From assembly GCA_000999465.1 (NCBI GenBank), contig LCGB01000003.1, positions 4,252 to 68,251 on the forward strand: a stretch of DNA of 64,000 nucleotides, read 5' to 3'. Below are positions 2,747-36,626 of this stretch, piece after piece. The position numbers and the translations under genes were made by a program. The notes beneath the pieces are model-generated. The model worked only from the letters and a program-made list of their open reading frames with translations, did not search any database and had not been told where the DNA came from. Position 1 is the first letter of the stretch, and every line of letters starts with the position of its first letter. This stretch comes from Candidatus Nomurabacteria bacterium GW2011_GWB1_43_19. Its GTDB lineage: Bacteria > Patescibacteriota > Minisyncoccia > Phycocordibacterales > UBA9973.

Positions 2747-2780
2747 ACTTAAAACTCTGTGATAGCAGAAAATGTAACAA
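2747..2780 (+). promoter_or_regulatory. Conserved promoter/operator-like motif (copy 1), upstream of rpmG
   Basis: ACTTAAAACTCTGTGATAGCAGAAAATGTAACAA. A -35-like TTAAAA, then a conserved 17-nt spacer with a CTGYGATMGCMG dyad, then a -10-like element. Confidence 0.5.
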
Positions 2781-2816
2781 TTTGCTTTTTATAATTTTTT
2801 ATACTAATCTATGCAT

Positions 2817-2975
2817 ATGTCACAAGAAAGATTAATCAAACTGGCCTGCGGAACCTGCAAACGCATCAATTACTGGTCCAGCAAGAACAAAAAACTCGTT
2901 ACCAAGAAAATAGAGCTTAAAAAATTCTGCAAATGGTGCCGCAAGCAGACCAAGCACAAGGAAGTCAAGAAGTAA
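2817..2975 (+). CDS. rpmG: 50S ribosomal protein L33
   Basis: Short ORF missed by the >=60 aa track: MSQERLIKLACGTCKRINYWSSKNKKLVTKKIELKKFCKWCRKQTKHKEVKK (C-x2-C ... C-x2-C zinc ribbon typical of L33). An alternative ATG lies at 2811. Confidence 0.8.
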   Translation: MSQERLIKLACGTCKRINYWSSKNKKLVTKKIELKKFCKWCRKQTKHKEVKK

Positions 2976-2992
2976 ATTTTTCCGCTTCTTTT

Positions 2993-3064
2993 GCGGGCGA
3001 TGAGGGAATCGGACCCCCGACATCGGTTTTGGAGACCGAAGTTATACCACTTAACTAATCGCCC
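2993..3064 (-). tRNA. tRNA-Trp (anticodon CCA)
   Basis: Reverse complement GGGCGATTAGTTAAGTGGTATAACTTCGGTCTCCAAAACCGATGTCGGGGGTCCGATTCCCTCATCGCCCG folds as a cloverleaf. Anticodon loop CTCCAAA; T-arm GGTCCGATTCC. Confidence 0.8.
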
Positions 3065-3147
3065 AACTTTCAAGAACGTAGGCTGATTATAACAAACTGA
3101 ATCAAAAATGGAAGAACACTTCCAAAACCTAGAAAAAGAGATTGAAC

Positions 3148-3969
3148 TCATAAAGCAGACGCATCAAACCACTTTATCTCTTTATCTCTTTTGAACCAAG
3201 TCATCTGCCTTTTGGCGTATTTTAAGGTTTCTTTAATTACTTTTTCCGGCGTCGGATTATTATATTCAAAACCAAACTCTTTTAATCTTTTATCGGACAC
3301 TCCCGCGCGCTTAAGTTTTTCTATTTCTTTCAAGAGTCCGTCTTTAAACATTTTTTTAACTCTTTGCTCCACTTTATTTTTTAGTTTATCAGGAGGCAAA
3401 TACAGCCCGATCTTGATGAATTGATAGGGAAGCGGATTAGCTTTTGGGCGAGGAACCTCGCCGAGATATTTGGCTATTTCAATCGCCCGAACCAGCCGGA
3501 CCTTATTTTTGGTATCGATATTTTTTGCGCGTTCCGGATCCATTTTTTTAAAATACTCAAATAATGCTATCGCTGATTTTGAGTATAATTCTTTACGCAG
3601 TTTAATATTTGGCGGGACCTCAGGGAAAACTATTCCCTTAGTTATGGCGTCAATATAGAAACCCGTTCCTCCGCAGATAATTGGAAACTTTCCTCGTTTT
3701 TGAATCTCCGCTATAACGTAGATTGCTTGCTTTTGATATTCAGCGACTGAAAACTTGGATTTTGGGTTAGCCACATCCAACAAATGGTGCAGCACACCTC
3801 GCATTTCTTTCTTGTCGATTTTACCCGTCCCTATGTTAAGTCCTTTATAAACCTGCCTGGAATCGGCGGAAATTATTTCACCTTTTAGTTTTTTAGCAAT
3901 ACTGACAGCCAAAGTGCTTTTGCCGGTTGCGGTTTGTCCCAGGATAACAATAATTTTCGGCTTAGACAT
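3148..3969 (-). CDS. miaA: tRNA dimethylallyltransferase
   Basis: P-loop ILGQTATGKST plus ISADSRQVYKGLNIGTGK, characteristic of MiaA. Confidence 0.9.
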   Translation of the reverse strand: MSKPKIIVILGQTATGKSTLAVSIAKKLKGEIISADSRQVYKGLNIGTGKIDKKEMRGVLHHLLDVANPKSKFSVAEYQKQAIYVIAEIQKRGKFPIICGGTGFYIDAITKGIVFPEVPPNIKLRKELYSKSAIALFEYFKKMDPERAKNIDTKNKVRLVRAIEIAKYLGEVPRPKANPLPYQFIKIGLYLPPDKLKNKVEQRVKKMFKDGLLKEIEKLKRAGVSDKRLKEFGFEYNNPTPEKVIKETLKYAKRQMTWFKRDKEIKWFDASAL

Positions 3970-5500
3970 ATGTTCCTTTTATTATTTTAATGTCCGCGCC
4001 AATAGAATTCAGCCTTTCCGCAATTTCTTCATAGCCGCGGTTTATCATATAAACATTGCGGAGAATGGAAATTCCGTTCGCTCCCAACATGGAAATGAGT
4101 ATAACCATGGACGGGCGCAGGGCGGGAGGGCAGACAACTTGCGCCGGTTTTAGCATTGTTCCGCCGTTTATATAAAGACGGTGGGGATCAGCAAGCGTTA
4201 TATCCGCTCCCAAGCGATTTAATTCGGTTAAATATATAGCGCGATTCTCATAAACCCAGTCGTGAATCATCGTTTGACCTTTTGCGCGTATTGCAATCGG
4301 AACAAAAAACGGCAAGTTATCAATGTTTATTCCCGGATAGGGGTTGGAGTGCAATTTATCGTGAAGAGCTTTCAGCTTGCTTGGGAGTATTTCCACATCC
4401 GCCAGTTTTGTCCGGCCGTTGAATGAGTTATATATTTTCGATATTTTGTATTTTAAATTCATTCTTTTTAATTTTTCAAGTTCCAGAGACATAAAATCTA
4501 TCGGCACACGGGTGACTTTAAGTCGGGAGTCTGTGACGATACAAGCGGAAATAAACATCATCGATTCTATCGGGTCTTCGCTGTTCCAATATTCGATATT
4601 TTTATTGATTTCTTTTATCCCGTGGACGGTCAGGTTGGCGGTGCCGATGCCGTCAATTTTTACTCCCAGCGCTTCCAGAAAAAAACATACTTCTTGTACC
4701 ATGTAATTGGCGCTGGCAAAACTTATTTTGGTAGTTCCTTCAATCAAGGCGGCGGCCGTGAGGACATTTTCACAGGCGGTATCTCCCGATTCATACATCA
4801 CTACATCTTTCGGCTTCAATTTTTTTGCGGTTATTTCGTAGTTTTTGACGGTCGTTTTTATTTTTACTCCAAATCGCTCAAGCGCGTAAATATGCGCGGC
4901 TATAGTGCGTTTTCCTAAGTGGCAACCATGCGCATGCGGGATAGAAAAGGAAGATAATTTGTGGATAAGAGGACCCATTAGCATAACAACGGAACGTGTT
5001 TTTAGGGCCGATTCTATATTAATATTTTCCAGGTTAAATTTGGCGGGTGGAGTTATTGTCAGTGTGTTTTGGTTAAGCCACTTTACCGCGACTCCGATAC
5101 TTTCCAAGATTTCAATTACCCGAAAAACTTCTTCGATCTTGGCGATGCCGTGCAGGGTCGTCGTCCCGCTGTTTATAAGCGAGGCGCACAGGAGACCGAC
5201 GGAGCCGTTTTTTGAAAAGTTGGTTTTAATCGTTCCGCTTAATTTCTTGCCGCCGTTCACTTGGAAATCAATGGAATCATTTATGGAAATAATCTGGTGG
5301 TCGAGAACATTGCTGATCTTTAAGAGAAGCTCGGTTGTAAAATTTTGTTCGCCTTTTTCCATACGGGGGATGGAGCTCTGTGATGTGTTGAGCGCTTTAG
5401 CGAACTCTGCCTGTGTCATCCCGCGATGTTCACGGAGTTCCCGGATAAAATACCCTATTTTTTCCTGCTCGGTTTGCACCGTTTCTTTTGTTTTAGTCAT
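3962..5500 (-). CDS. murA: UDP-N-acetylglucosamine 1-carboxyvinyltransferase with N-terminal HTH (XRE-type) domain fusion
   Basis: Residues ~15-70 (IRELREHRGMTQAEFAKALNTSQSSIPRMEKGEQNFTTELLLKISNVL) look like HTH_XRE. The rest is the MurA/EPT fold (GGKKLSGTIKT..., C-terminal NRGYEEIAERLNSIGADIKI). Single uninterrupted 512-aa ORF. Confidence 0.8.
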   Translation of the reverse strand: MTKTKETVQTEQEKIGYFIRELREHRGMTQAEFAKALNTSQSSIPRMEKGEQNFTTELLLKISNVLDHQIISINDSIDFQVNGGKKLSGTIKTNFSKNGSVGLLCASLINSGTTTLHGIAKIEEVFRVIEILESIGVAVKWLNQNTLTITPPAKFNLENINIESALKTRSVVMLMGPLIHKLSSFSIPHAHGCHLGKRTIAAHIYALERFGVKIKTTVKNYEITAKKLKPKDVVMYESGDTACENVLTAAALIEGTTKISFASANYMVQEVCFFLEALGVKIDGIGTANLTVHGIKEINKNIEYWNSEDPIESMMFISACIVTDSRLKVTRVPIDFMSLELEKLKRMNLKYKISKIYNSFNGRTKLADVEILPSKLKALHDKLHSNPYPGINIDNLPFFVPIAIRAKGQTMIHDWVYENRAIYLTELNRLGADITLADPHRLYINGGTMLKPAQVVCPPALRPSMVILISMLGANGISILRNVYMINRGYEEIAERLNSIGADIKIIKGTYV

Positions 5501-5513
5501 ATGTCAAATAGTA

Positions 5514-5531
5514 TATCTCATATATGAGATA
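5514..5531. promoter_or_regulatory. Perfect 18-nt palindrome TATCTCATATATGAGATA in the promoter of the HTH-murA fusion gene
   Basis: Located 14 nt upstream of the start codon (minus strand). It overlaps a TATACT -10-like box. A candidate operator for the fused XRE-type HTH. Confidence 0.5.
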
Positions 5532-5591
5532 ATGCAAGCATAGTGTATGATAAATTGATTTCCGCCTGCAATTAAAGTATTATTTGGACAT

Positions 5592-5678
5592 GCCCAGGTG
5601 GCGGAATTGGTAGACGCGATAGACTCAAAATCTATTGATGGCAACATCATGAGAGTTCGATTCTCTCCCTGGGCACCA
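5592..5678 (+). tRNA. tRNA-Leu (anticodon CAA), encoded CCA
   Basis: GCCCAGGTGGCGGAATTGGTAGACGCG...GACTCAAAATC... has a long variable arm. T-arm GGTTCGATTCT; 3' end GGGCACCA. Confidence 0.85.
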
Positions 5679-5756
5679 AAAAACATATTTTGTTTTGCAC
5701 TTGATATAAACATAAATATCGATTTTTATTTTTTGGAAGTGTGCTAAAATGTACTC

Positions 5757-6743
5757 ATGTCCAACTTATATTCCAATTCAATTTTTTGGATTGATACCGA
5801 TAAAATTAAACCGAATCCGCTCCAGCCGAGACGGGATTTTGACGAAGCGCGTTTACAGGACCTGGCTGATTCCATAAAGCAATACGGGGTTCTGCAGCCG
5901 TTGACCGTTTCTCGAATGGAAATGGAAAAAGAAAATGGTGGGCTGGTAACTGAGTATGAACTAATTGCCGGAGAGCGCCGGCTACGGGCTGCCAAGTTGG
6001 CACAAGTATCGCAGGTGCCCGTCATAATTCGCATCGGAGACACGGCCATTATGAAACTTGAACTGGCAATTATTGAGAATCTGCAACGCGAGGACTTAAA
6101 TGCGGTGGACCGCGCCAGAGCTTTTTTCCGGCTGGTCGGTGAATTTAAATTCACCCATAATGAAATTGCAAAAAAAATGGGCCGCAGCCGGGAATATGTT
6201 TCCAATTCTCTGCGTATTTTGACTCTGCCGGAAGAAATTTTAAACGGTCTTTCCGAAGGCAAAATTACCGAAGGGCATACTCGTCCGCTTCTTATGCTGG
6301 CAGACCATCCGGAAGAACAGTTGGTTTTATTCAAGGAAATTTTATACAAGAAAATTACCGTGCGCGAAGCCGAAAGACTGGCAAGAAAAATAGCTTACGA
6401 CCGGGTCCGGAAGAAAGAATTTATGCCCGACCCGGAAATAACCGAATTAGAAGAAGAGTTTCAGGAAAAACTCGGCACCCGGGTGCACATAGACAGAAAG
6501 GAACTGGGTGGACAGATTAAAATTGATTTCTTTTCCACAGAAGACCTGCGAACCATTTTGGATTTAATTCATAAAAGTGAATCCGAGAAAAAACCGGAAC
6601 AAATGCTTGAAAATTTTATCGCCAAGAATAATTCAAAAGAAGAAATTCCGACACTTGAAGAGACACCGGTGGATGACAGGACAAAAGAAGATATAAACAA
6701 GGACGACGCCGATTTATACAACATTTCCAATTTCAGCGTATAA
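5757..6743 (+). CDS. parB: Chromosome partitioning protein ParB/Spo0J
   Basis: ParB box LQPLTV...GERRLRAAKLA and an HTH region. No parA is adjacent. Confidence 0.85.
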   Translation: MSNLYSNSIFWIDTDKIKPNPLQPRRDFDEARLQDLADSIKQYGVLQPLTVSRMEMEKENGGLVTEYELIAGERRLRAAKLAQVSQVPVIIRIGDTAIMKLELAIIENLQREDLNAVDRARAFFRLVGEFKFTHNEIAKKMGRSREYVSNSLRILTLPEEILNGLSEGKITEGHTRPLLMLADHPEEQLVLFKEILYKKITVREAERLARKIAYDRVRKKEFMPDPEITELEEEFQEKLGTRVHIDRKELGGQIKIDFFSTEDLRTILDLIHKSESEKKPEQMLENFIAKNNSKEEIPTLEETPVDDRTKEDINKDDADLYNISNFSV

Positions 6744-6744
6744 A

Positions 6745-8214
6745 TCAGCTTCTTCCGAAGGATTTAAGTCTGGCAAGTAAGCTGTTTTTTTCCAAGTACG
6801 ATCTTATATGTTTTTTAGCAATGGAAGTTTTTACGAATTCCAACCATTTACTGGAAGGTTTGGAGTCCTTTTTGGTTACTATTTCCACGATATCTCCATT
6901 TTTTAACTTTGTGAAAAGTTGCACCATTTTGCCGTTAACTTTTGCGCCGAAAGTATGGTTTCCAATATCGGAATGAATGGAATAGGCAAAATCAAGCGGG
7001 CATGATTCTTCCGGCAGGTCTATAACATCTCCCTTGGGAGTAAAAACGAAAATACGATCATTAAAAAAATCCATTTTCAGGTGGTCAATAAATTTTTTCG
7101 GATCATCGGGTGAATATTTCAATTCCTTTAACTCCTCAACCCATTTAAATTTATTCTTATCATTTTTTACCTTTTTGTCTTTTTGTTCTTTGTAGGCGAA
7201 ATGCGCGGCAATACCGTAAGCGGCTTCGGCGTGCATTTCTTTTGTTTTTATTTGGATTTCCGCGACTCTTCCCAGCCCGGTAAAAATAGTCGTATGAATT
7301 GAACGGTAGCCGTTCGGCTTGGGGACAGCGATGTAGTCCTTAATTCTGCCCGGTAGGGGATTCCAGATGGAATGAATCAGCCCAAGAACCCGATAACACT
7401 CTTCCACAGTATTAACCACGACGCGCAGAGCCACGATGTCATATATTTTATCTATGTCTATGTCGTATTTCAGGAGCTTCTTGTATAAGCTGTATCTGTG
7501 CTTTATACGATAATCAATTTCCACGAATTTAATTTTGTTTTTCTTCAATTCTTTTTCAAGTTCGGTGCGGACTTCGGTCAGGTTTTTCTGGAAAGTGTCT
7601 TTTTTTTCTTTAATTATTTCTTCCACCTGGGCATATTCCGCGGGATAAGCATATGGAAAAGCGGCATCTTCAAGCTCGCCTTTAAGTTTTCCCATTCCAA
7701 GACGGTTCGCCAATGGCGCATAGACTTCAATGGACTCGATGGATATTCTTTCCCTCTTGTCTTCGCGCAAGAATTCAAGCGTGCGCAGATTATGTAGTCG
7801 GTCGGCAAATTTTATAATAACCACGCGCAAATCGTTTGCCATGGCGATAAAAAATTTACGCAGAGATTCCACATGCCTTTCATGCCCGCGGTATTTGAGA
7901 GTTCCCAACTTAGTCACGCCTTTTATCAAGAACAGGATATCGTCGCCGAATTCTCTTTTTATTTCTTCCTCTTTTATCTCGGTGTCTTCCAGTATGTCAT
8001 GCAGAAGCCCGGCGGCGATGGTCTTTGCATCCATTCCAAGCTGGGTCAGGATTTTAGCAGTTTCAAAAACGTGATTAAAATATGGTTCTCCGTTCATCCG
8101 TTTTTGCCCGGCATGCGCTTTTTCGGCAAATGCACAGGCCTTTTCAATGAGAACAGCATCTTTTTTGCATAAATCCCCGGTAATTAGGTCTATCATCTCT
8201 TTAATATTTGCCAT
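6745..8214 (-). CDS. (p)ppGpp synthetase/hydrolase, short Rel/SpoT homolog (HD + synthetase + TGS-like, no ACT)
   Basis: HD motif LLHDILEDT, synthetase region YRSIHTTI and a TGS-like C-terminus. 489 aa. Confidence 0.85.
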   Translation of the reverse strand: MANIKEMIDLITGDLCKKDAVLIEKACAFAEKAHAGQKRMNGEPYFNHVFETAKILTQLGMDAKTIAAGLLHDILEDTEIKEEEIKREFGDDILFLIKGVTKLGTLKYRGHERHVESLRKFFIAMANDLRVVIIKFADRLHNLRTLEFLREDKRERISIESIEVYAPLANRLGMGKLKGELEDAAFPYAYPAEYAQVEEIIKEKKDTFQKNLTEVRTELEKELKKNKIKFVEIDYRIKHRYSLYKKLLKYDIDIDKIYDIVALRVVVNTVEECYRVLGLIHSIWNPLPGRIKDYIAVPKPNGYRSIHTTIFTGLGRVAEIQIKTKEMHAEAAYGIAAHFAYKEQKDKKVKNDKNKFKWVEELKELKYSPDDPKKFIDHLKMDFFNDRIFVFTPKGDVIDLPEESCPLDFAYSIHSDIGNHTFGAKVNGKMVQLFTKLKNGDIVEIVTKKDSKPSSKWLEFVKTSIAKKHIRSYLEKNSLLARLKSFGRS

Positions 8215-8241
8215 CTAAGAATTATACATCCCGATAGAGTT

Positions 8242-10542
8242 TTATTCAATTTTTTTAATTTTATGCGGATTATGCATTGGACAGCTTTTATTTGAGCAAC
8301 GTTCGGGAATTGTTTTTGTGCCTTCCATCATTAAACTGCCACATTTTTCGCATGTTCGGCCCGTCGGCTTGGCTTTGATTGCGAATTTACAGTCCGGATA
8401 GTTAGAGCAGGAATAAAAGATACCGAAACGTCCGCGCCGTTCGGAAATGTCGCCCTTCTTACATAAAGGGCAGGTGACACCAGTGCGTTTCCTCGCTTCC
8501 TCGGCCTCGTCTTTTTTTATGAATTTGCATTTCGGATAGCGCGAGCAAGCGATGAATGTGCCGGAGCCGTCACGCCTCTCTTTGATGACCAGCTTGCCGT
8601 GTTCCTTCTCCTTTTTTCCTCGCCTTGCCGAAGTCTCGGACGAAGGCAGGTCTCCGCACAAAGGGCACACCTCACCAGTTTCTTTGGGTCCCTCTAGTTC
8701 TTTTCCGTCCAGCATCAGCGCGCCGTCACAGTCGGGATATTTGGAGCAAGAGTAAAATTTTCCTCCGCGCGCAAGTTTGATTATCATCAAACTGCCGCAT
8801 TTTGGGCATTTGATGGTTTTTGGGGCGTCGCCCAGATTAGTCGCTTTTTCCAGTTTTTCTTTTGATTTAATGTCTTTGGAAAAAGGAATGTAAAAATCCT
8901 TCAGCGTTTTCTCGTATTCGCGTTCCCCGCGGGAAATTTCGTCAAGTTCGTCTTCCATTTCGGCGGTGAAAGTGTCGGAAATATAATTGGCAAAATGCTT
9001 TTCCAGAAAATCCGAGACCACTTCGCCGACATCAGTGGGAAATAATGTTTTGCTTTCTTTTTTTATATACCCGCGTTCTTCGATTGTCCGCATAATAGAC
9101 GCATAAGTGGAAGGCCGACCGATACCCCGCTGCTCAAGTTCTTTAATCAGTCCCGCTTCGCTGTATCTCTCCGGCGGTTCGGTAAATTTTTCCTCGCTGG
9201 AGAGACCAAGTAGTTTTAATTTTTCTCCCTCTTTACACAAAGGCAGTTCCACGTCATTCCCGCGGGCGCCTTGATCGACAGCCAGCCATCCCGGAAAAAG
9301 CAAGCGTGAGCCGTTGGCCCGGAAGTCCGGGATTTCCCCACATGTCAGACATGTGGGAACCACATGTCTGACATGTGGGAACTCAACACGGGCGGTAATT
9401 TTTGTCTTCAGCAGTTTCGCGTCGGCCATCTGCGAAGACACGGCGCGTTCCCAGATGAGGCGGTAGAGGTGGTCTTGATCGTCGTGGCTCGTGTGCAGTT
9501 TGTCTATATGGGTGGGCCGGATGGCTTCATGCGCTTCTTGGGCGTTTTTTGATTTTGTTTTGTAAATTCTTCCTTCGGCATATTCATTTCCGTATTCCTT
9601 TTTTACGAAAGACAAAATTTGGGCCCGCGCGGCGGCGGATAAATTGGTGCTGTCGGTTCTCATGTAAGTAATGTGTCCCGCCTCATAGAGTTTCTGAGCT
9701 ATCTGCATCGTGCGCGAAGGGGAGTAGCCCAGGCGCGAACTGGCGGTCTGCTGCAGAGTGGAAGTGGTGAAAGGCGCGCGCGGCGAATGTTTCTGTTCCG
9801 ATTCTTTGACTCCGCTTATCAGCCAGGCGCCGGATTTTCCCGCCTCCATTATTTTTTCTACCAGTTTTTCGTCCCGAGGTTCTTCCGAGCATTCTAGAGT
9901 AATTTTTTCTTCTCTTGCTGTTTCAAACAAGCCCAGAATTTTCCAGAATTTTTCCGGAATAAAAGCGCGGATTTCCCGCTCGCGTTCCATTATTATGCGG
10001 AGGGCAGGGGACTGGACTCGTCCGGCCGAGAGCCCGTACCTGACCTTTTTCCAGATAAGTCCCGAAAGGTCGTAGCCGACAAGGCGGTCAAGCACCCGGC
10101 GCGCCTCTTGCGCTTTGCGAAGAGCCGTATCAATTTTCCGCGGATGCTTTAACGCTTCTTCCACCGCTTCTTTGGTAACTTCATAAAAAGTCACCCGTTC
10201 TATCGGGGCCCTGATCTTTTTATCCTGCTTTAAGAGGGTTTCTATATGCCAAGCGATGGCTTCTCCTTCGCGGTCGGGATCGGTTGCCAGGATTATTTCA
10301 CCGGCTTTTTCGGCGAGCATTTGGAGTTCATGCACGATTTTTTCCTTGCCTCTCGAAATCTCATAATGTGGAATAAATCCGCCTTCTATGTCTATGGCTT
10401 TTTTGTTTGACTTCGGCAGGTCGCGGATGTGCCCGACGGATGCGCGCACGGTAAACTTGTCCGCTTTCAGGGCAGACCCGTCATTCAGATATTTTTCAAT
10501 AGTTTTCGCTTTCGACGGCGATTCCACAATCAATAACTTCAT
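8242..10542 (-). CDS. topA: DNA topoisomerase I with C-terminal multiple zinc ribbons
   Basis: Toprim N-terminus MKLLIVESPSKAKTIEKYL, active-site Tyr region GRPSTYAS and four C4 zinc-ribbon repeats. It carries an in-frame palindromic insert at 9334-9382. Confidence 0.95.
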   Translation of the reverse strand: MKLLIVESPSKAKTIEKYLNDGSALKADKFTVRASVGHIRDLPKSNKKAIDIEGGFIPHYEISRGKEKIVHELQMLAEKAGEIILATDPDREGEAIAWHIETLLKQDKKIRAPIERVTFYEVTKEAVEEALKHPRKIDTALRKAQEARRVLDRLVGYDLSGLIWKKVRYGLSAGRVQSPALRIIMEREREIRAFIPEKFWKILGLFETAREEKITLECSEEPRDEKLVEKIMEAGKSGAWLISGVKESEQKHSPRAPFTTSTLQQTASSRLGYSPSRTMQIAQKLYEAGHITYMRTDSTNLSAAARAQILSFVKKEYGNEYAEGRIYKTKSKNAQEAHEAIRPTHIDKLHTSHDDQDHLYRLIWERAVSSQMADAKLLKTKITARVEFPHVRHVVPTCLTCGEIPDFRANGSRLLFPGWLAVDQGARGNDVELPLCKEGEKLKLLGLSSEEKFTEPPERYSEAGLIKELEQRGIGRPSTYASIMRTIEERGYIKKESKTLFPTDVGEVVSDFLEKHFANYISDTFTAEMEDELDEISRGEREYEKTLKDFYIPFSKDIKSKEKLEKATNLGDAPKTIKCPKCGSLMIIKLARGGKFYSCSKYPDCDGALMLDGKELEGPKETGEVCPLCGDLPSSETSARRGKKEKEHGKLVIKERRDGSGTFIACSRYPKCKFIKKDEAEEARKRTGVTCPLCKKGDISERRGRFGIFYSCSNYPDCKFAIKAKPTGRTCEKCGSLMMEGTKTIPERCSNKSCPMHNPHKIKKIE
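9334..9382. repeat. Palindromic element, ATGTCWGACAT family, tandem pair inside topA CDS
   Basis: TTTCCCCACATGTCAGACATGTGGGAACCACATGTCTGACATGTGGGAA. In-frame in topA, where it translates as ...FPHVRHVVPTCLTCGEIP.... Confidence 0.8.
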
Positions 10543-10631
10543 GATAGTGTGCTAAGTATTACATGAAATAGTTTTTTAATGCAAATCCATCCTGCCACAA
10601 CGCCTCGCACCGTCGTGCTCCGGCCTTGCGA

Positions 10632-11495: not shown

Positions 11496-11531
11496 TTTGT
11501 AATTATATTAATTTTATTATATAATCACAAT

Positions 11532-12797: not shown

Positions 12798-12801
12798 AAC
12801 T

Positions 12802-14858: not shown

Positions 14859-14867
14859 AATAACCGC

Positions 14868-15905: not shown

Positions 15906-15919
15906 AATACTTAATTAAA

Positions 15920-17743: not shown

Positions 17744-17786
17744 TGTTATAAATTCTGCGATAGCAGAAATTGTAACAAAAAAATTA
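17744..17786 (+). promoter_or_regulatory. Conserved promoter/operator-like motif (copy 2), upstream of GNAT gene
   Basis: GTTATAAATTCTGCGATAGCAGAAATTGTAACAAAAAAATTA. Confidence 0.45.
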
Positions 17787-22979: not shown

Positions 22980-25900
22980 ATGATTTCAAGGATATATGTG
23001 ACGCCCAAAGGCAAGGCAGATTTCATCAATTCCTACCTGATTGCGCACAAATTCTCAAAAGAGCGGATAGAAAAAATCGCCCAAGCTCTGACGAATCCCG
23101 TCCTTGAAAACTACTCCATAAACGAGTTCCCGAAAACAGAAAAGTTTTCGTATGCTATTGAGATCGGATTTAAGCCGGGGGTCACGGACAACGCCGGGCA
23201 TACGGCGGAAGAAACAATTTACGATTTATTTCATATTCCGTCGGGTGTTGGACACCGGGATTTCGGGTGTCCAACACCCGACGGAACTCTGGCGGTGTAC
23301 ACTTCCAAAATATTTTTAATACACGAAGCGGACCGCAAAGAGGCGGAACAAATCGCCCTTTCACTTCACAATCCGCTAATTGAACGCTCTTACATCGTCA
23401 GTCGGAAAGATTTGCAGAAAAATAAAAATTTGTTTTTAGAAGCGCCGCGGGTCATCTTGGAAAAACGCGTTCCGGTAATTAACATTTCGCTTGATGTGCT
23501 CGATGACGAACTCGTTAAAATCGGCCAGGAGGGGATAAGGGACGAGAAAGGCGACCGGCGGGGACCTTTGGCGCTGGACCTTGCGTCCATGAAAGCAATT
23601 CAGGAACATTTCCGGAAATTAAAAAGAAATCCGACGGATATTGAACTGGAGTCCTTGGCCCAAACCTGGTCCGAGCATTGCAAACACACCATTTTTGCCA
23701 ATCCGATAGACGACATACATGACGGTTTGTATAAAACTTACATCAAAGGAGCCACTAATTTAATTAGGAAAAATAAGGGCCGCCGCCTGGGCGGGGCAAG
23801 TAAAAACGACTTCTGCGTATCGGTATTTTCCGACAATTCCGGCGGCATAGTTTTTGACAAGAATTATCTCATAACCCACAAAGTGGAAACGCACAATAGC
23901 CCGTCCGCCCTGGACCCCTTCGGCGGGGCCATTACCGGTATCGTCGGAGTCAACCGCGACACCATTGGCTTCGGTCTGGGCGCCAAGCCGGTGGCGAATG
24001 TTTACGGCTTTTGTTTTGGCTATCCAGAGGACGAGCAAAAATTTTTTAAAGACAAAAACATGACACAATTAATGCTTCCGCCGAAAAGAATTATGAAAGG
24101 TGTAATTAAGGGAATCAATGTCGGGGGAAATTGTTCCGGCATTCCGACTCTTTCCGGTTTTTTGAAATTTGACGATAGATACCGCGCCAAGCCTTTGGTT
24201 TTCGCCGGCACCGTCGGAATTATCCCAAGGAAAATTAACGGTAAATTCTTACACACCAAAGAGGCAAAGGCGGGTGACTATATAGTAATGGTCGGAGGCA
24301 GAGTGGGTTTGGACGGTATCCACGGAGCGACTTTTTCTTCGGTAGCGATGGATGCGAATTCCCCGGCCACCGCAGTGCAAATCGGCGACCCGATAACCCA
24401 GAAAAAATTAAGCGACGCGATTGTCAAAGAAGCGCGAGACATGGGCTTATACAACAGCATCACCGACAACGGCGCCGGCGGGCTTTCCTGTTCGGTGGCG
24501 GAAATGGCCAAGGAGTGCGGCGGAGCGAAGGTGGCATTGGAAAAAGTTCCGTTAAAATATCCGGGGTTGTGCCCCTGGGAAATATGGATTTCCGAATCAC
24601 AAGAGCGCATGACTCTCTCTGTGCCAAAAAGTAAATGGAAAAAATTTGAAAATCTTATGGAAAGCCGAGGAGTGGAAGCGACGGTTATTGGCGAATTTAC
24701 CAAGGCGGAAAAATGCGTAGTCAAATACAAAGGAAAAAAAATAATGGATATTCCGATGGATTTCCTGCATAACGGACTGCCTAAGCATCATTTATACACC
24801 TCACCCCCAGCCTCTCTCCTTGAACCCCCTTACTCCCCCTTATCAGGGGGAAACCATTTGCCTCCCCTGATAAGGGGAGGTCGGGAGGGGTTGGAGGGGA
24901 TGGCCGAAAGGCCGGGTGAGATCTACACTAAAGATTTAGAGAATCTGCTTGGCAATAAAAATATCAGCGGATTTTCTTTTGTTTCGGAACAATACGACCA
25001 TGAAGTCCAAGCATCTTCCGTATTAAAGCCCCTCTCCGGAGCAGGGCGCATCAACACCGACGCGCAGATTTTCCGCCCGGTTTTGGACTCGCCCAAGGGA
25101 GTTGTGCTGACTTCCAGCGCTTATCCGTCATATGGAGACATCAGCGCTTACAATATGGCCGCCTGCGCGATTGATACGGCGGTCAGGAACATAATTTCGG
25201 CCGGCGGAACACTCTCGCACCTGGCCATCTTGGACAACTTTTGCTGGTGCTCATCCAATGACCCGAAACGCCTTGGCCAACTTGTAGGCGCGGTCAAGGC
25301 CTGTTATGACTGCGCGGTGGGATATGGAACTCCCTTTATCTCCGGCAAGGACAGCATGTTCAACGATTTCAAAGGATATGATGAAAGGGGAAACCCGGTG
25401 GATATTTCCATTCCGCCGACATTGCTAATTTCCGCTATCAGCGTAATGCCGGATTTGTATAAGGCCGTTTCGCCTGAATTCAAAAAAACCGGAGACATTA
25501 TTTACTTGCTGGGAGAAACGAACGACGAGATGGGAGGAGGGGAGTATTTAAAGTCGTTGGGCTTCGTAGGCAATAACACCCCGAAAGTTGATGTGAAAAA
25601 AAATATGAGAACTTATCTAGCGCTGGAGAAAGCGATTCAAGAAGGATTAGTATCGTCTTCGCTTTCGGTAACTTCTGGCGGGCTGGGCATCGCCCTGGCC
25701 AAAGCCGCTGTTGGGGGGATGATGGGGTGCAATATTTCTCTAAGCCCCATAGGCAAGACCTATGGGGTAGATGTAAAGCTTTTCTCCGAAAGCCAGGGCA
25801 GAATTCTTGTTTCGGTGCCGTCTAAAAATGTTTCCGCTTTTGAAAAAATAATCAAAAATATCTCTTTCGCTAAGTTGGGCAGAGTTGTCGGAGGCGGAAA

Positions 25901-25994
25901 GGTAGTTATTATGGACAAAAGCAAGATAGTTGAGACCAATGTGAAAAAATTACACAAAATTTATCATAAATTTTCAAATGAAAACCGAAACTAA
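22980..25994 (+). CDS. purL: Phosphoribosylformylglycinamidine synthase, PurS-PurL fusion with in-frame Pro/Gly-rich insertion
   Basis: N-terminal PurS-like region (RIYVTPKGKADF...KPGVTDNAGHT), then PurL AIRS domains (VETHNSPSALDPFGGAITG, GKDSM). Residues ~606-640 are encoded by a GC-rich palindromic element. Confidence 0.85.
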   Translation: MISRIYVTPKGKADFINSYLIAHKFSKERIEKIAQALTNPVLENYSINEFPKTEKFSYAIEIGFKPGVTDNAGHTAEETIYDLFHIPSGVGHRDFGCPTPDGTLAVYTSKIFLIHEADRKEAEQIALSLHNPLIERSYIVSRKDLQKNKNLFLEAPRVILEKRVPVINISLDVLDDELVKIGQEGIRDEKGDRRGPLALDLASMKAIQEHFRKLKRNPTDIELESLAQTWSEHCKHTIFANPIDDIHDGLYKTYIKGATNLIRKNKGRRLGGASKNDFCVSVFSDNSGGIVFDKNYLITHKVETHNSPSALDPFGGAITGIVGVNRDTIGFGLGAKPVANVYGFCFGYPEDEQKFFKDKNMTQLMLPPKRIMKGVIKGINVGGNCSGIPTLSGFLKFDDRYRAKPLVFAGTVGIIPRKINGKFLHTKEAKAGDYIVMVGGRVGLDGIHGATFSSVAMDANSPATAVQIGDPITQKKLSDAIVKEARDMGLYNSITDNGAGGLSCSVAEMAKECGGAKVALEKVPLKYPGLCPWEIWISESQERMTLSVPKSKWKKFENLMESRGVEATVIGEFTKAEKCVVKYKGKKIMDIPMDFLHNGLPKHHLYTSPPASLLEPPYSPLSGGNHLPPLIRGGREGLEGMAERPGEIYTKDLENLLGNKNISGFSFVSEQYDHEVQASSVLKPLSGAGRINTDAQIFRPVLDSPKGVVLTSSAYPSYGDISAYNMAACAIDTAVRNIISAGGTLSHLAILDNFCWCSSNDPKRLGQLVGAVKACYDCAVGYGTPFISGKDSMFNDFKGYDERGNPVDISIPPTLLISAISVMPDLYKAVSPEFKKTGDIIYLLGETNDEMGGGEYLKSLGFVGNNTPKVDVKKNMRTYLALEKAIQEGLVSSSLSVTSGGLGIALAKAAVGGMMGCNISLSPIGKTYGVDVKLFSESQGRILVSVPSKNVSAFEKIIKNISFAKLGRVVGGGKVVIMDKSKIVETNVKKLHKIYHKFSNENRN
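24796..24900. repeat. GC-rich nested palindromic element inserted in frame in purL
   Basis: Core CCCCCTTATCAGGGGG...CCCCTGATAAGGGG, flanked by CCTCTCTCC.../...GGAGGTCGGGAGGGG. About 65% GC. Encodes TSPPASLLEPPYSPLSGGNHLPPLIRGGREGLEG within PurL. Confidence 0.7.
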
Positions 25995-26625
25995 ACAATG
26001 CCAAAACTGTCCCGATTTCTTAAATTTCAAGCAACAACTTCGCGGCTGCTATGGACTTCGTAAAAAGTCTTACTGCATTTTGAATAAACAATACAGTAAG
26101 GAAACATATGAGAATTTGAAAGAAAAAATAATTGAAAGGATGAGAGCTGGCAGAGAATGGGGACAATTCTTCCCCAAAAGCATGAGTCCTTTCGCTTACA
26201 ACGAAGCAATTGCGAATGAATATATGCCGCTTTCTAAAGAGAAAGCTGCTGTTCAGGGTTTTCGCTGGCAAGACGATATACCGAGCACCAAAGGGCAGGG
26301 AACTATGGATAATTCAAAATTACCCGAAAATCCTAATGAATATAATGATAATTTAACACAGGAGATATTAACTTGTGAAAAATGCGAAAAAAACTATAAA
26401 CTCATAAAAAGAGAGATTGGTTTTTACAAGAAGAATAAATTACTTCCTCCCCGTCAATGTTTCAATTGCCGGCACGCCCTGCGGATGAGCAAGCGCAATT
26501 CCAGAAATCTTTGGGAGGGTGTTTGCGCTAAATGTGGTAATGTAATACTTACCTCTTACAAACCTGAAGATCAAAAGATTTATAAACTTTACTGCGAAAA
26601 ATGTTATCAGCAAGAAGTATATTAA
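25978..26625 (+). CDS. Cysteine-rich multi-zinc-ribbon protein, short paralog (family member D)
   Basis: It shares CILNKQY[ST]KE.Y, SPFAYNE, the C-terminal zinc-ribbon module (CEKC..Y..I..E..FYKK...P.RQCFNCR) and the terminal YCEKCYQQEVY with the 34811, 50052 and 51402 ORFs. Confidence 0.6.
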   Translation: MKTETKQCQNCPDFLNFKQQLRGCYGLRKKSYCILNKQYSKETYENLKEKIIERMRAGREWGQFFPKSMSPFAYNEAIANEYMPLSKEKAAVQGFRWQDDIPSTKGQGTMDNSKLPENPNEYNDNLTQEILTCEKCEKNYKLIKREIGFYKKNKLLPPRQCFNCRHALRMSKRNSRNLWEGVCAKCGNVILTSYKPEDQKIYKLYCEKCYQQEVY

Positions 26626-26670
26626 TTATCTATACTTAAAACTTAGCCATGGCATAAATTTGAGTATATT

Positions 26671-28886: not shown

Positions 28887-29487
28887 ATTAAAATTAACGG
28901 TCCTTATTTCCAATACCGGCATCGGCACCAACCTAAGGGCGATAATTGACGGAGTTGCTAAAGGCAAGATAAAAGCAGAGATTGTGGCGGTGATTTCCGA
29001 TACGACCGAAGCGCTTGGGCTGGAACACGCCAGAAAACATAATTTGGAAATTGAAATATGCGAAAAAAAAGAGAATTTGTTGCCGCTTTTACAAAAATTA
29101 AATCCGGATTATGTGTGTTTAGCCGGCTGGAAGCAAATTATTCTGGATGAAGTTATCTTGACATATCCCAATAAAATTTTAAACCTGCATCCGGGACTGG
29201 TTCCGAACACCACAGACGGAAGCGTTGAAAATCCTGATGAAACAGAAGGACTTTGGAATAAGGGCATGTTGACCGATAAAGCGATTCAAAACTTTTTAAA
29301 TAAAAAAAACACTTTTGCTGGCTCTTCTATCCATTTTCTCACTTTAAATTTTGATTTTGGGCCGGTTTTAGGAAGAACTTTTGAAAAAATTAAAGTCAGT
29401 GATACAATTGCATCGTTGTATGGAAGGTTGAAGAAAAAAGAAAATCAATTATATGTGGAAGTTTTAGAAAAACTGACTAATACTTAA
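28870..29487 (+). CDS. purN: Phosphoribosylglycinamide formyltransferase
   Basis: VLISNTGIGTNLRAII and NLHPGL motifs. It has a longer C-terminal half than E. coli PurN. Confidence 0.85.
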   Translation: MFQENKLKLTVLISNTGIGTNLRAIIDGVAKGKIKAEIVAVISDTTEALGLEHARKHNLEIEICEKKENLLPLLQKLNPDYVCLAGWKQIILDEVILTYPNKILNLHPGLVPNTTDGSVENPDETEGLWNKGMLTDKAIQNFLNKKNTFAGSSIHFLTLNFDFGPVLGRTFEKIKVSDTIASLYGRLKKKENQLYVEVLEKLTNT

Positions 29488-29518
29488 AACTCTGCAATCG
29501 CCGAAATTTAAGTAAAAT
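29483..29518 (+). promoter_or_regulatory. Conserved promoter/operator-like motif (copy 3), 5 nt upstream of purD ATG
   Basis: ACTTAAAACTCTGCAATCGCCGAAATTTAAGTAAAAT. Confidence 0.5.
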
Positions 29519-29522
29519 ATTT

Positions 29523-30809: not shown

Positions 30810-30897
30810 AGAGTACTTTGATGCGATGTCATTCAGATGTTGTCTGTAAGAATACTTACAGACACATCTTCGCTAATCGCAAAAAAAATGCTAAAAT

Positions 30898-32442: not shown

Positions 32443-32443
32443 A

Positions 32444-33376
32444 ATGAATATTTTAGAAAAAACGGATTTCAAGAACTTGGGGGAGAAATACACGGGGAAG
32501 GTAAGGGACGTTTACACCCAGAAAAACAAAGTTATTTTAATCTCCACCGACCGGTATTCCGCCTTTGACCGCAACCTGGCGCTGATACCCTGTAAAGGCC
32601 AAGTGTTGACACAAGTCAGTAAATTTTGGTTTGAGAACACAAAAGACATAGTCCAAAATCATGTGATAGATTTTCCCGACCCGAACGTAGTAGTGGGTAA
32701 AAAATGTGAAGTTCTGCCGATAGAAGTTGTACCCCGAGCATATATTACCGGAGTAACCGGAACTTCTTTATGGACTTTATACCAGAAGGGTCAGAGAGAT
32801 TTCGGAGATTTTACCCTGCCTGATGGCATGCATAAAAATCAAAAACCGGACAAAGTCGTGCTGACACCCACCACCAAGCGCGAGGAGCACGACCGGCCGC
32901 TCTCGGGCAAAGAGATAGTCGAAGGCGGCTACATGACCAAAGAGCAGTGGGAAAAAGTTGCGGACATTTCACTCAAACTATTCAAGCGCGGACAGGAAAT
33001 CGCTTTGCAAAAAGGCTTGATTCTGGTGGACTGCAAGTACGAATTCGGTTTGGATGAAAACGGGGAACTAACTCTGGTTGACGAAATTCATACTCCCGAT
33101 TCTTCGCGCTACTGGCAGGCAAATTCATACGAGGAACGGATTAATCAGGGACTGGAACCGGAAAACTTTGACAAGGAATTTCTGCGCCTATGGTTCAAAG
33201 AGCACTGCGACCCCTATAAGGACAAAGTGTTGCCGCCGGCCCCGCCGGAAATGATTGCGGAATTATCAAGGCGCTATGTGCAAATCTGCGAGCAAATTAC
33301 CGGGATTCCTTTCACCGTTGAAACGGGAGATATCGGAAAAAGGATAGAAAATAATCTTAAAAAATATCAAATATAA
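32444..33376 (+). CDS. purC: Phosphoribosylaminoimidazole-succinocarboxamide synthase (long form)
   Basis: GKVRDVY, STDRYSAFD and DCKYEFG motifs. 310 aa. Confidence 0.85.
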   Translation: MNILEKTDFKNLGEKYTGKVRDVYTQKNKVILISTDRYSAFDRNLALIPCKGQVLTQVSKFWFENTKDIVQNHVIDFPDPNVVVGKKCEVLPIEVVPRAYITGVTGTSLWTLYQKGQRDFGDFTLPDGMHKNQKPDKVVLTPTTKREEHDRPLSGKEIVEGGYMTKEQWEKVADISLKLFKRGQEIALQKGLILVDCKYEFGLDENGELTLVDEIHTPDSSRYWQANSYEERINQGLEPENFDKEFLRLWFKEHCDPYKDKVLPPAPPEMIAELSRRYVQICEQITGIPFTVETGDIGKRIENNLKKYQI

Positions 33377-33377
33377 T

Positions 33378-34766
33378 ATGCCTTTGAACTCAATTTCCCC
33401 AATAGACGGAAGATATGAAAAGTATACCAAGGATTTGGCTCCGTATTTCAGTGAAGCCGCCTCCATGAAGTATAAAGTCCTGATGGAATGCGAGTATCTG
33501 ATAGCGTTGTCGGAAACGGCCGGTATCGGAATGCGGAAGTTGAATACCCGAGAAAAAGCTTCAATAAGAAATTTGTATGCAAAATTTTCGCTTGAAGACG
33601 CGGAGACGATTAGTAATATTGAATTGAAGGGGTATAAAGGCATAAAAGCCACCAATCACGATTTCAAGGCGATTGAATATTTCATCAAGGATAAAATGGC
33701 GAAAACCGGCCTGAAGGATGTGCTGGAATTCGCGCATTTCGGCCTGACCAGCGAAGATGCCAGCAATATTGCCTACGCGTTGATGTTGTCGGATGCTTTG
33801 GAATATGTACTTATCCCTGAAATCAAAAAAATAGTGGAAGAATTGGACACTCTTGCGAAAAAATATAAAAATTTGCCGATGCTGGCCAGGACCCATGGAC
33901 AACCTGCTTCTCCGACCACTTTCGGCAAGGAAATGAAGGTTTTTGTTGCCAGAATTGAAAAAAGAATTGAGGGTCTTGAGAGTATAAAAATAGAAGTAAA
34001 GTTAAATGGAGCCACCGGTAACTATAATGCTCTTTATGTTGCATATCCCAAAATTGACTGGACGAAGTTTAGCCAAAAATTTATTGAAGGTTTTAATAAA
34101 AATCGTTCTCAAAAATTAAAAACAAACTTGATTACTACTCAGATAGAATGTCATGACAGTTATGTGGCTATCTTTGATACTTTAAGACAAATCAATACGA
34201 TTCTCTTGGGTTTCAATCAAGACATGTGGAGGTATGTTTCTGATGGCTGGGTTAGCCAAAGGCCGGTGGAAGGGGAGGTGGGTTCATCCACCATGCCGCA
34301 TAAAATTAATCCTTGGTTTCTGGAAAACAGCGAAGGCAATTTGGGAATGGCCAACGCCATGTTTGAATTTTTCGCGCGAAAGCTTCCCGTTTCCCGCCTG
34401 CAGAGGGACTTATCGGATTCCACCGTTTTACGCAATATTGGAACGGCCTTTGGTCACAGCTTGATTGGCTTCAAATACTTAAATAATCAGCTTGGCAGAG
34501 TTATTGTAAATAAGGAAAAAACGCTGGAGGACCTTAAAAACCATCCGGAAGTAATTACCGAGGCCATCCAGACAATCCTGCGGCGGGAAGGGGTAGCTAT
34601 GCCCTATGAAAAGTTAAAAGAACTGACTCGCGGTAAAAAAGTCACTCTTCAGGATATCCGTAAATTTATCAATGACCTGAAAGTCAGCGAAAAAGTAAAA
34701 AAGGAGCTCTTAAAGATTACTCCGGAAAATTATACCGGCCTGGCTTCCAAACTTGCTTCCAAATAA
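33378..34766 (+). CDS. purB: Adenylosuccinate lyase
   Basis: Fumarate lyase signature GSSTMPHKINP. 462 aa. Confidence 0.9.
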   Translation: MPLNSISPIDGRYEKYTKDLAPYFSEAASMKYKVLMECEYLIALSETAGIGMRKLNTREKASIRNLYAKFSLEDAETISNIELKGYKGIKATNHDFKAIEYFIKDKMAKTGLKDVLEFAHFGLTSEDASNIAYALMLSDALEYVLIPEIKKIVEELDTLAKKYKNLPMLARTHGQPASPTTFGKEMKVFVARIEKRIEGLESIKIEVKLNGATGNYNALYVAYPKIDWTKFSQKFIEGFNKNRSQKLKTNLITTQIECHDSYVAIFDTLRQINTILLGFNQDMWRYVSDGWVSQRPVEGEVGSSTMPHKINPWFLENSEGNLGMANAMFEFFARKLPVSRLQRDLSDSTVLRNIGTAFGHSLIGFKYLNNQLGRVIVNKEKTLEDLKNHPEVITEAIQTILRREGVAMPYEKLKELTRGKKVTLQDIRKFINDLKVSEKVKKELLKITPENYTGLASKLASK

Positions 34767-34768
34767 AA

Positions 34769-34807
34769 ACTTATAACTCCGCTATCGCAGAAATATAAGT
34801 AAGTAAT
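34769..34807 (+). promoter_or_regulatory. Conserved promoter/operator-like motif (copy 4), upstream of Cys-rich gene A
   Basis: ACTTATAACTCCGCTATCGCAGAAATATAAGTAAGTAAT. Ends 3 nt before the ATG. Confidence 0.5.
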
Positions 34808-34810
34808 AAA

Positions 34811-36583
34811 ATGAAAGGGGAAAGCGAAAATAGAATACATTCAGTAGACTCAGTATCTACGACGTGCCAGAACTGCAAGGGTTCATTCACGATTGAGCCG
34901 GACGATTTCGGATTCTATGAAAAGATCAAGGTTCCGCCGCCAACTTTTTGTTTTGATTGCCGGCTACAAAGAAAACTAACTTTCGTCAACGAACGGGCGC
35001 TTTTTAAAAGAAAATGCGATAATTGCGGCAAAGACACCATAACAATGTATTCACCCAGAAACCCTTTTAGAGTTTTCTGCACTAGTTGTTACAATGATAG
35101 GAGAAACTGCCTGGAATACGGGATAGATTTAGATTTCTCAAAACATTTTCTCGCGCAATTTTATGAGCTTTTTAAAAAGGTCCCGCGGCTTCATTTGATG
35201 CACAAAAACAACAACGGCGAAGGGTGCGAGTATGCTAACCATATTTACCGCAGTCGTAGAGTTTATCTATCTTATACGATAGTAAAATCCGAAGACATTT
35301 ATTACTCCAAACAAGGCCTAGAGGGAAATAAAATTTGCTTAGATAGCTTTAATATGAAACATAGCGAGAGGGGTTATGAATTGGTCTATGTTTCAAGGGC
35401 CTATAATTCAAGATTTCTAATCCATTCTAGCCGTTGCATTGATAGTCAGTATCTTTTGCATTGCGGTGATTGTAATAATTGCTTCATGTCTCATAATCTC
35501 CGACATAAAAGCTATGTTTTTAGAAATCAACAATTGACTAGAGAAGAGTATTTCAAGGAGATGAAAAAAATTAAACTTGATTCCTATACCGAACAAGAAA
35601 AGTTAAAAAAAGAATTTTCTGAATTACCTAGAATGACAGGCCCAGCCCAAGTCAAGGCGGTTGTAAATGTAACCGGCGACTTTATTGGTCATTCAAAAAA
35701 CGCTAAATACTGTTTTAGCAATGTTGATACAGAAAATTCTAAATATATTGTTTTTGGTGTAAATACTATTCGAGATTGTTATGATCTAATGTTTGCTGGC
35801 CGGAGTGAACTTTGTTACGAATGTGCTGGTAGCGGCGCTCAAAATAATAATGTTTCTTTCTCTCTTGATATAGGAGCAAATCATGAGATTAATTATTGTA
35901 TTTCTACTAACAATTGCGGATACTGTTTTGGTTGTGTCGGTATAACCAATCAAAATTATTGCATTCTCAATAAACAGTACACCAAAGAAGAATACGAAAA
36001 GCTGGTGCCGAAAATTATTAAGCACATGAATCAAATGCCCTATGTGAGCAAAATAGGGAGGGTGTATAAATACGGCGAATTTTTTCCAGAAGAATTCTCA
36101 CCTTTCGCTTATAATGAAAGTTTGGCCTACGAAGAATTTTCAATGACGAAAGAAGAAGTTTTAAAAGAGGGCTACGAGTGGCGGGACTTGGAGGAGAAGC
36201 AGTATAAAACCACTATTGATAATAGAGATTTACCTGATAGTGTTAATGATGTCAAGGACAGTATTCTTGAAGAAGTAATTGCTTGTCCCAATCAGGGTCA
36301 GACCGAGACCAAGTGCACCTACGGCTTTAGAATTGTGCCAGATGAACTTAGATTTTATCGTTTAATGAAGATACCACTGCCTAGACTTTGTCCAAACTGC
36401 CGCTATTATGAACGTCGTAAGTGGCTTAACCCGTGGAAACTCTGGCATCGGCAATGTATGTGCAGTAAAAAGAATCACTTTCACGGAGTGGAAAAGTGTG
36501 AGGTGGAATTTGAGACGTCATACGCCCCGGAGAGGCCGGAAATTGTTTACTGCGAAAAATGCTACCAGGCGGAGATGTATTAA
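34811..36583 (+). CDS. Cysteine-rich multi-zinc-ribbon protein, long paralog (family member A)
   Basis: N-terminal CQNCKGSFTIEPDDFGFYEKIKVPPPTFCFDCRLQR, a second ribbon KRKCDNCGK...FCTSCY, a Cys-rich core (CIDSQYLLHCGDCNNC..., CYECAGSG...CGYCFGCVGITNQNYCILNKQYTKEEY), SPFAYNES, a C-terminal ribbon CPNCRYYERRKWLNPWKLWHRQCMC and terminal ETSYAPERPEIVYCEKCYQAEMY. No signal peptide or TM. Confidence 0.7.
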   Translation: MKGESENRIHSVDSVSTTCQNCKGSFTIEPDDFGFYEKIKVPPPTFCFDCRLQRKLTFVNERALFKRKCDNCGKDTITMYSPRNPFRVFCTSCYNDRRNCLEYGIDLDFSKHFLAQFYELFKKVPRLHLMHKNNNGEGCEYANHIYRSRRVYLSYTIVKSEDIYYSKQGLEGNKICLDSFNMKHSERGYELVYVSRAYNSRFLIHSSRCIDSQYLLHCGDCNNCFMSHNLRHKSYVFRNQQLTREEYFKEMKKIKLDSYTEQEKLKKEFSELPRMTGPAQVKAVVNVTGDFIGHSKNAKYCFSNVDTENSKYIVFGVNTIRDCYDLMFAGRSELCYECAGSGAQNNNVSFSLDIGANHEINYCISTNNCGYCFGCVGITNQNYCILNKQYTKEEYEKLVPKIIKHMNQMPYVSKIGRVYKYGEFFPEEFSPFAYNESLAYEEFSMTKEEVLKEGYEWRDLEEKQYKTTIDNRDLPDSVNDVKDSILEEVIACPNQGQTETKCTYGFRIVPDELRFYRLMKIPLPRLCPNCRYYERRKWLNPWKLWHRQCMCSKKNHFHGVEKCEVEFETSYAPERPEIVYCEKCYQAEMY

Positions 36584-36587
36584 CATA

Positions 36588-36626
36588 ACACAATTTCGCG
36601 ATCGCGAAATTGTGTTAAAAAATTAC
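36588..36626 (+). promoter_or_regulatory. Variant of the conserved motif as a perfect 28-nt palindrome downstream of Cys-rich gene A
   Basis: ACACAATTTCGCGATCGCGAAATTGTGTTAAAAAATTA. Compare copy 2: TCTGCGATAGCAGAAATTGTAACAAAAAAATTA. Confidence 0.45.

Follow-up and report, generated by a model that had tools for sequence, protein, structure and literature searches.

A palindromic intergenic element in a Nomurabacteria genome as candidate operator of a short PaaX-like regulator

PaaX of Escherichia coli and of Pseudomonas combines a GntR-like winged helix-turn-helix (wHTH) with a Cas2-like central domain. The E. coli protein represses its own promoter and has as its binding site an inverted repeat with a wide spacer, TGATTC-N27-GAATCA (PMC9493321). 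Gene regulation in the Patescibacteria (candidate phyla radiation, CPR) is almost unstudied, and in the literature searched we found no paper that links PaaX-like proteins to this group or that describes leaderless promoters there. Here we analyse a stretch of 64,000 nt, referred to as the window, from Candidatus Nomurabacteria bacterium GW2011_GWB1_43_19 (contig LCGB01000003.1), in which an earlier note had pointed out five intergenic sites with a common dyad-bearing core; its numbering (sites 1 to 5) is kept. The motif probably serves a CPR-specific mini-PaaX protein, whose binding to it we infer, as operator both for its own gene and for a regulon. The type of element is conventional, namely a palindromic operator, in a little-studied lineage. 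The outcome is a testable candidate regulator-operator pair, widespread in Nomurabacteria/Paceibacterota, with an expanded Cys-rich family, L33 and purine genes as the candidate controlled genes. In addition, the analysis provides clear sequence evidence for the dominance of leaderless promoters (TGnTAnnWT-N6-ATG) in this lineage.

The element and the regulator gene that it flanks

All five sites proved to be in place (Table 1) and their core is not random. With up to three mismatches allowed, the core YTGCGATMGCMGAAATWKT has five matches in the window (at 2757, 17755, 29492 and 34779, and at 17748 on the reverse strand), against a chance expectation of 0.59, and none of 100 shuffles reached this number. 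The 33-mer consensus, at the same tolerance, is found at 29482-29514 and at 34769-34801, where 0.00 matches are expected. The architecture of the sites is that of a palindrome of 32-34 nt which goes beyond the 12-nt dyad alone, with outer arms that read ACTTAAA...TTTAAGT at 29482, ACTTATA...TATAAGT at 34769 and TGTTA...TAACA at 17744.

The individual sites differ in how their arms are kept and in their counterparts in other species. Of the two arms of site 1 the left is standard and the right divergent, and no outer stem forms; the position of the element upstream of rpmG is kept in other species (loci L102, L114 and L116), and there the right arm is normal. The arm type of site 2 is that which flanks the regulator genes of L091 and L131. 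The 34 nt of site 4 are identical in L036, which belongs to another species, and it is this sequence that L036 holds in the gap orthologous to 26632-26667, where the window has a sixth member of the family. In the 80 relatives the purN-purD gaps orthologous to site 3 mostly show a gene overlap or unrelated palindromes, and the site is not conserved there.

Relatives of the element were collected by hand from these 80 purD loci, which are of roughly 20 kb each. The collected sequences have in common the inner core AAAYTCTGC-N4-GCAGARTTT, and their outer arms vary by genome (TGCTACA, GTGACA, ATACTCAAA). A covariance model, R1, placed the element in only about 12 of the 80 loci. Moreover, a pattern scan of metagenomes returned 48 loci with the near-invariant consensus ACTTATAACTCTGC[TATC/GATA]GCAGAAATATAAGTA. 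The search pattern had left positions 1-2 and 27-33 free and these are nevertheless 83-95% conserved in 42 distinct metagenome contexts; the sequence itself is therefore kept, and not pairing alone. The central 4 nt occur in either orientation, as TATC 28 times and as GATA 11 times, which fits a spacer that a symmetric dimer leaves uncontacted.

The metagenome copies lie mostly in gaps between genes of the same direction; six orthologous sites lie in one convergent gap and one site in a divergent gap. According to automatic gene calls the AACTC arm is upstream in 22 tandem contexts and reversed in 6, and when the flanks are read by eye about 25 copies run along the genes and 3 against them. 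From the 3' end of the element to the ATG there are most often 6-12 nt, the other distances being about 20-50 nt. The distances cluster at about 8.5, 19, 31-37 and 48-52 nt, which is suggestive of a helical-phase periodicity for which the sites are too few.

The candidate regulator is a protein of about 160 aa (155-167 aa) consisting of an N-terminal winged helix and the Cas2-like domain found at the centre of PaaX (Pfam PF20803, PaaX_M, E = 3.4e-12). There are 1752 homologs at E <= 1e-5 in Nomurabacteria/Paceibacterota, and PF20803 is annotated in 120 of 120 of them among the matches listed. In each of the 13 distinct loci that we examined, one copy of the element precedes the regulator gene and another follows it. 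Four of these (L130, L131, L132 and L134) were fetched through the regulator protein and amount, with L137, to about 99 kb; in this DNA 10 of the 11 distinct sites of model R1 flank the regulator gene.

Wherever the 5' flank is present, the layout upstream of the gene is the element, 5 nt (ATTTA), a canonical leaderless promoter with TGnTATAMT, 6-8 nt and the ATG, or else the element overlaps this promoter. The window genome has TGCTATACT-N6-ATG within the left arm of the upstream copy, and therefore the putative operator overlaps the -10 box and the start. The second copy is always 3' of the stop codon, 10-25 nt away. The chromosomal context is also kept, with tsaD leftward, the regulator rightward and gdh or an NTP-transferase gene leftward, and for this reason we rejected the idea that element, regulator and element form a mobile cassette. 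The arm type follows the recognition-helix region of the protein: SG goes with ACTTA, RA with TGYTA and NA with ATACT. The earlier note had taken the conserved stretch between its two hexamers as a sign of a regulator site, a direction which our analysis supports.

According to the mechanism that we propose, the operator would be a double-stranded inverted repeat of 33 bp around the inner dyad TCTGC-N4-GCAGA, with 7-bp outer arms (ATACTYAAA in the window genome, ACTTAWA in many relatives). A dimer of mini-PaaX, held together by the Cas2-like domain, would bind it, and the occupied upstream copy would hinder RNA polymerase and lead to autorepression as in E. coli PaaX. The other copies would put the Cys-rich genes, rpmG, purD, purQ and others under the same regulator, either by occlusion of their promoters or by a roadblock within operons. 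Looping, roadblock, antisense control and action at the RNA level may all be modes of this control.

Several points weigh against this proposal. The link between protein and site is drawn from gene neighbourhood alone, and one regulator with an SG helix has ACTAGA arms. Copies are found where no promoter is expected: convergent gaps contain some, others follow the regulator gene, and site 5 lies past a stop codon. The genes next to the element have diverse functions, and a canonical -10 at the usual distance is missing from most of the sites near an ATG. Moreover the structure model of the regulator is only moderate (pLDDT 66) and its N-terminal domain is poorly defined. In favour of the proposal, Foldseek matched this model to Cas2 (probability 1.0), to Rv0674 and to E. 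coli PaaX (8a39), the E-values being weak. A sequence search of the PDB with the regulator gave nothing significant. An ORF of 156 aa upstream of site 2 was also considered as the regulator and was rejected, having no similarity to the L025 protein.

Distant PaaX_M subfamilies have palindromes of their own. The PaaX_M gene of L035 has one on each flank, with the core GCATATGC, and those of L089, L098 and L117 (168-192 aa) have one upstream only, with the core TTTCGYGRYCRCGAAA, just ahead of a TGTATAAT box. The latter core is identical in 14 of 16 positions to that of site 5, a site that has no core match at up to three mismatches, yet has TTTCGCGATCGCGAAA in common with the others. The earlier note had described it as a perfect palindrome version of the same sequence; the perfect palindrome of 32 nt is there, but judging from these cores it probably is a site of the paralogous regulator subfamily. 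Within 84 kb of the 136.8-kb source contig the gene of such a paralogous regulator was not found.

Table 1. Features of the window and of related loci discussed in the text
Feature	Coordinates	Strand	Position or remark
Site 1, ACTTAAAACTCTGTGATAGCAGAAAATGTAACA	2747..2779	+	14 nt past murI-like stop; 31 nt ahead of rpmG ATG (2811)
Likely rpmG leaderless promoter, TATACT-N5-ATG	2800..2813	+	separate from site 1; assigned by the spacing rule
Site 2, TGTTATAAATTCTGCGATAGCAGAAATTGTAACA	17744..17777	+	inner core as in the others; TGTTA/TAACA arms
Sixth member, absent from the earlier note, ATACTTAAAACTTAGCCATGGCATAAATTTGAGTAT	26632..26667	+	between 215-aa zinc-ribbon gene and purQ
Site 3, ACTTAAAACTCTGCAATCGCCGAAATTTAAGTA	29482..29514	+	purN/purD gap; ends 8 nt ahead of purD ATG
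Site 4, ACTTATAACTCCGCTATCGCAGAAATATAAGTA	34769..34801	+	purB/Cys-rich gene gap; ends 9 nt ahead of ATG 34811
Cys-rich gene, 590 aa	34811..36583	+	commonest neighbour of the element, on either side
Site 5, perfect 32-nt palindrome, TAACACAATTTCGCGA/TCGCGAAATTGTGTTA	36586..36617	no strand	2 nt past Cys-rich gene stop
Looser relative, TGTTATCAAATTTGACGGCCGTCCAAAAGTGATAACA	50015..50051	-	adjoins stop of Cys-rich paralog, convergent gap
Looser relative, near-identical second copy of the 50015-50051 palindrome	51365..51401	-	after next Cys-rich paralog
Regulator gene of the window genome	L137:5052-5555		encodes 167 aa; same contig, 3.2-3.7 kb past window end; bracketed by ATACTCAAATTATGCTATCGCGGAATTTGAGTAT and ATACTCAAACTTAGCGATAGCATAATTTGAGTA
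Regulator loci with the element on both flanks	L025, L082, L091, L099, L101/L107, L104, L105/L118, L120, L130, L131, L132, L134, L137

Hairpin, promoter and repeat as other readings

The alternative that survives best, unlikely as we consider it, is that the element acts as an RNA hairpin in polycistronic transcripts, where it would serve as a stabiliser, a processing site or a weak terminator at cistron ends and where the same wHTH/Cas2-like protein would perhaps recognise it. The sense strand of the consensus has a fold of -13.7 kcal/mol (z = -6.2), there are sites 0-25 nt past stop codons, and sites near an ATG lack a canonical promoter. In addition, palindromes overall reach their highest density in convergent gaps (2.78 per kb) and their lowest in divergent ones (0.68 per kb). 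In an alignment of 18 members 83% of the cells pair, compared with 60% after shuffling, and 14 of 16 pairs change on both sides; however these members were selected for palindromy, which makes the test partly circular. Compensation is weak in the metagenome sites, a set free of this selection: of the 15 that carry A at position 6, only 4 balance it with T at position 27. In the preferred orientation the fold is also weaker on the sense strand, with its conserved A.A and C.A mismatches, than on the antisense strand (-16.6 kcal/mol), and a hand count gave about equal numbers of T.G and C.A mismatches on the sense strand, with no G.U bias. The loop is found in both orientations and no T-run follows the stem. 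Moreover, the copy upstream of the regulator lies in a divergent gap and precedes a leaderless start, so that it is outside the regulator mRNA. The weak compensation, the sense-strand mismatches, the flipping loop, the upstream copy outside the mRNA and the missing T-run together favour recognition of duplex DNA by a symmetric dimer.

With regard to termination, the base of the stem is A+T-rich, TTT stands before and AAA after the G+C core and the sense flanks are A-rich, which is not the make-up of an intrinsic terminator. A canonical bidirectional intrinsic terminator, with an A-run, a GGGG/CCCC stem and a T-run, is present at 41667-41704; this genome therefore uses ordinary terminators, which are distinct from the element. 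A scan of the window with Rfam found three tRNAs only and no match to the element.

The promoters of the lineage can be described from the window and the 80 related purD loci, which together contain 374 genes preceded by a gap of 40 nt or more. In 81 of these genes TAnWWT ends exactly 6 nt ahead of the ATG, against a background of about 12, and the extended form TGnTAnnWT is seen 39 times at this distance and 1-2 times elsewhere. Such a sharp peak indicates that leaderless transcription is the norm in the lineage. No Shine-Dalgarno-like sequence is visible in the short gaps of the window and of the related loci. Examples of the leaderless extended -10 in the window are found at 8215-8241, 45779-45821 and 49122-49175.

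The earlier note had read the element as promoter-like, and taken at its full extent this would make it a self-contained promoter, with TTAWAA as -35, a conserved spacer of 17-18 nt and TATAAG or TAAGTA as -10, that gives rise to short-leader or leaderless mRNAs. We regard this as improbable. The TTATAA-N17-TATAAG geometry does exist, the orientation along the genes is biased as described above, the distances to the ATG cluster at 6-12 nt, and in the pur operon it is the gaps of more than 30 nt that hold the element, the rest of the genes being coupled at 4 nt or less. The two hexamers are, however, the arms of one palindrome. Those proposed as -10 lack the final T and end 8-12 nt from the ATG, compared with the 6 nt at which the lineage places its TGnTAnnWT, and the TGCTACA, GTGACA and ACTAGA arms of relatives are not promoter-like. 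A sigma-70-type core promoter, with TAnnnT 6 nt ahead of the ATG and a -35 17±1 nt upstream of it, is not what the element contains, and copies also lie in convergent gaps. Because the promoters of the lineage are TGnTAnnWT at 6 nt, TTAWAA and TATAAG/TAAGTA are better read as the outer half-sites of an operator. The leaderless transcription that had been proposed along with the promoter agrees with the habit of the lineage, but both rpmG and the regulator gene have a separate canonical -10 of their own downstream of the element; for rpmG this is the TATACT-N5-ATG, about 20 nt downstream of site 1.

Just as improbable is that the element is a palindromic repeat, REP-like or selfish, which spreads in intergenic DNA and has no specific regulatory role. 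Such a repeat would account for an intergenic family of palindromes with several near-identical copies per genome and genome-specific arms, for the identical 34-mer at non-orthologous places in two species and for the inversion of the loop. It agrees poorly with the low copy number in most relatives, with the positions that orthologous sites keep in different species (ahead of rpmG and to either side of the regulator gene) and with the biased orientation. Moreover, among the genes listed for the fetched loci we saw neither a RAYT nor a transposase.

Least probable of all, in our view, is that the wHTH/Cas2-like protein recognises the element as a nucleic-acid hairpin and cuts or marks the transcript, creating 5' ends shortly before the AUG. 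The Cas2 beta1 motif (MFDIP) keeps its Asp in all of 28 homologs, and nuclease activity is therefore possible. If this mechanism existed, then genes inside operons could yield leaderless mRNAs for translation, in a lineage where most genes start at a 5'-terminal AUG, and the fixed orientation, the distance of 6-12 nt to the ATG and the missing canonical -10 would be accounted for. Likenesses to PurR/PurBox, the Zur box, the NrdR box, parS and CIRCE were dropped, since their sequences, spacings or neighbour genes do not match.

Neighbouring genes and other palindromes

The genes beside the element are heterogeneous. They include the Cys-rich family, on both sides of it, rpmG (conserved in four species), purD and purQ, and in addition genes for a VirD4-like ATPase, a patatin, an alpha/beta hydrolase, a NUDIX protein, an M24 peptidase and DUF5674. 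In the window, which also contains L33 and three tRNAs, the string of genes from purL to purB houses sites 3 and 4 and the sixth member; its other junctions are coupled by gaps of 4 nt or less, and the gaps of more than 30 nt hold the element. The purD of the window is 74% identical to the best reference, and its relatives are labelled Nomurabacteria or Paceibacterota. From the end of site 5 to the next gene there are 79 nt.

Paralogs of the Cys-rich gene are encoded at 50052-51356 and 51402-53132, both on the reverse strand, and the forward-strand gene at 25978-26625 is listed with the family. The proteins, of 430-590 aa, share the motif CQNCK..F.IE.DDF.FYEKIKVPPPTFC at the N terminus and YCEKCYQAEMY at the C-terminal end, and gave weak matches to treble-clef zinc fingers only.

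The palindrome at 50015-50051 is an uncertain member of the element family, and model R1 did not find it. It differs from the copy at 51365-51401 in 1 of 47 nt, counting the 37-nt palindrome with its flanks, and the adjacent coding ends of the two paralogous genes differ in about 4 of 24 nt. The non-coding copy is therefore better conserved than the genes.

Other palindromes of the window are of different types. A separate family of long near-perfect palindromes (CCCACATGTCAGACATGTGG gaa CCACATGTCTGACATGTGGG and similar) was found at 9337-9379, 41146-41189 and 23236-23286, two of the three falling within coding sequence, of a topA-like gene and of purL. Upstream of a Cys-rich paralog, at 53216-53245, there is a palindrome TATTCTATAATTCTA/TAGAATATTAGAATA with TAGAAT boxes. 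The same type also occurs at L009:1937, L016:1409, L019:1965 and L059:6946, apparently in orthologous gaps of the four relatives, and may represent another class of operator or promoter. In addition, short hairpins on ATCTACGC...GCGTAGAT or GTAGAT arms are present in gaps after genes, at 49987-50008, about 36620-36650, about 42470-42510, L049:5521 and L009:11923.

Comparison with known systems

Among known systems we compared the element with three. REP/BIME sequences of Proteobacteria are likewise short imperfect intergenic palindromes, often placed just past stop codons and with a family resemblance within a genome. The element differs from them in being low-copy in most genomes, in its conserved orthologous positions, in its biased orientation and in that no RAYT gene was seen. 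The CIRCE operator of HrcA (TTAGCACTC-N9-GAGTGCTAA) is also a conserved inverted repeat between or beside promoter and start codon that lends itself to either reading, DNA operator or mRNA hairpin; here the sequence is unrelated, chaperone genes are not among the neighbours and the candidate regulator is of another family.

The likeness to PaaX lies in the protein, with its PF20803 central domain and N-terminal wHTH, in a long inverted-repeat operator with widely spaced arms, and in a site on the regulator's own promoter, which implies that autorepression would come about by steric hindrance. The differences begin with size, the candidate being about 160 aa long and PaaX about 305 aa. The candidate ends just past the Cas2-like domain and is devoid of the C-terminal, phenylacetyl-CoA-binding PaaX_C. 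Its neighbours are tsaD, gdh and the NTP-transferase gene, with no paa genes nearby. The 7-bp arms of the element are 19 bp apart and enclose a conserved inner dyad, in contrast to TGATTC-N27-GAATCA. Moreover, mini-PaaX differs from PaaX in the second copy of the element, which always follows the stop codon of its gene.

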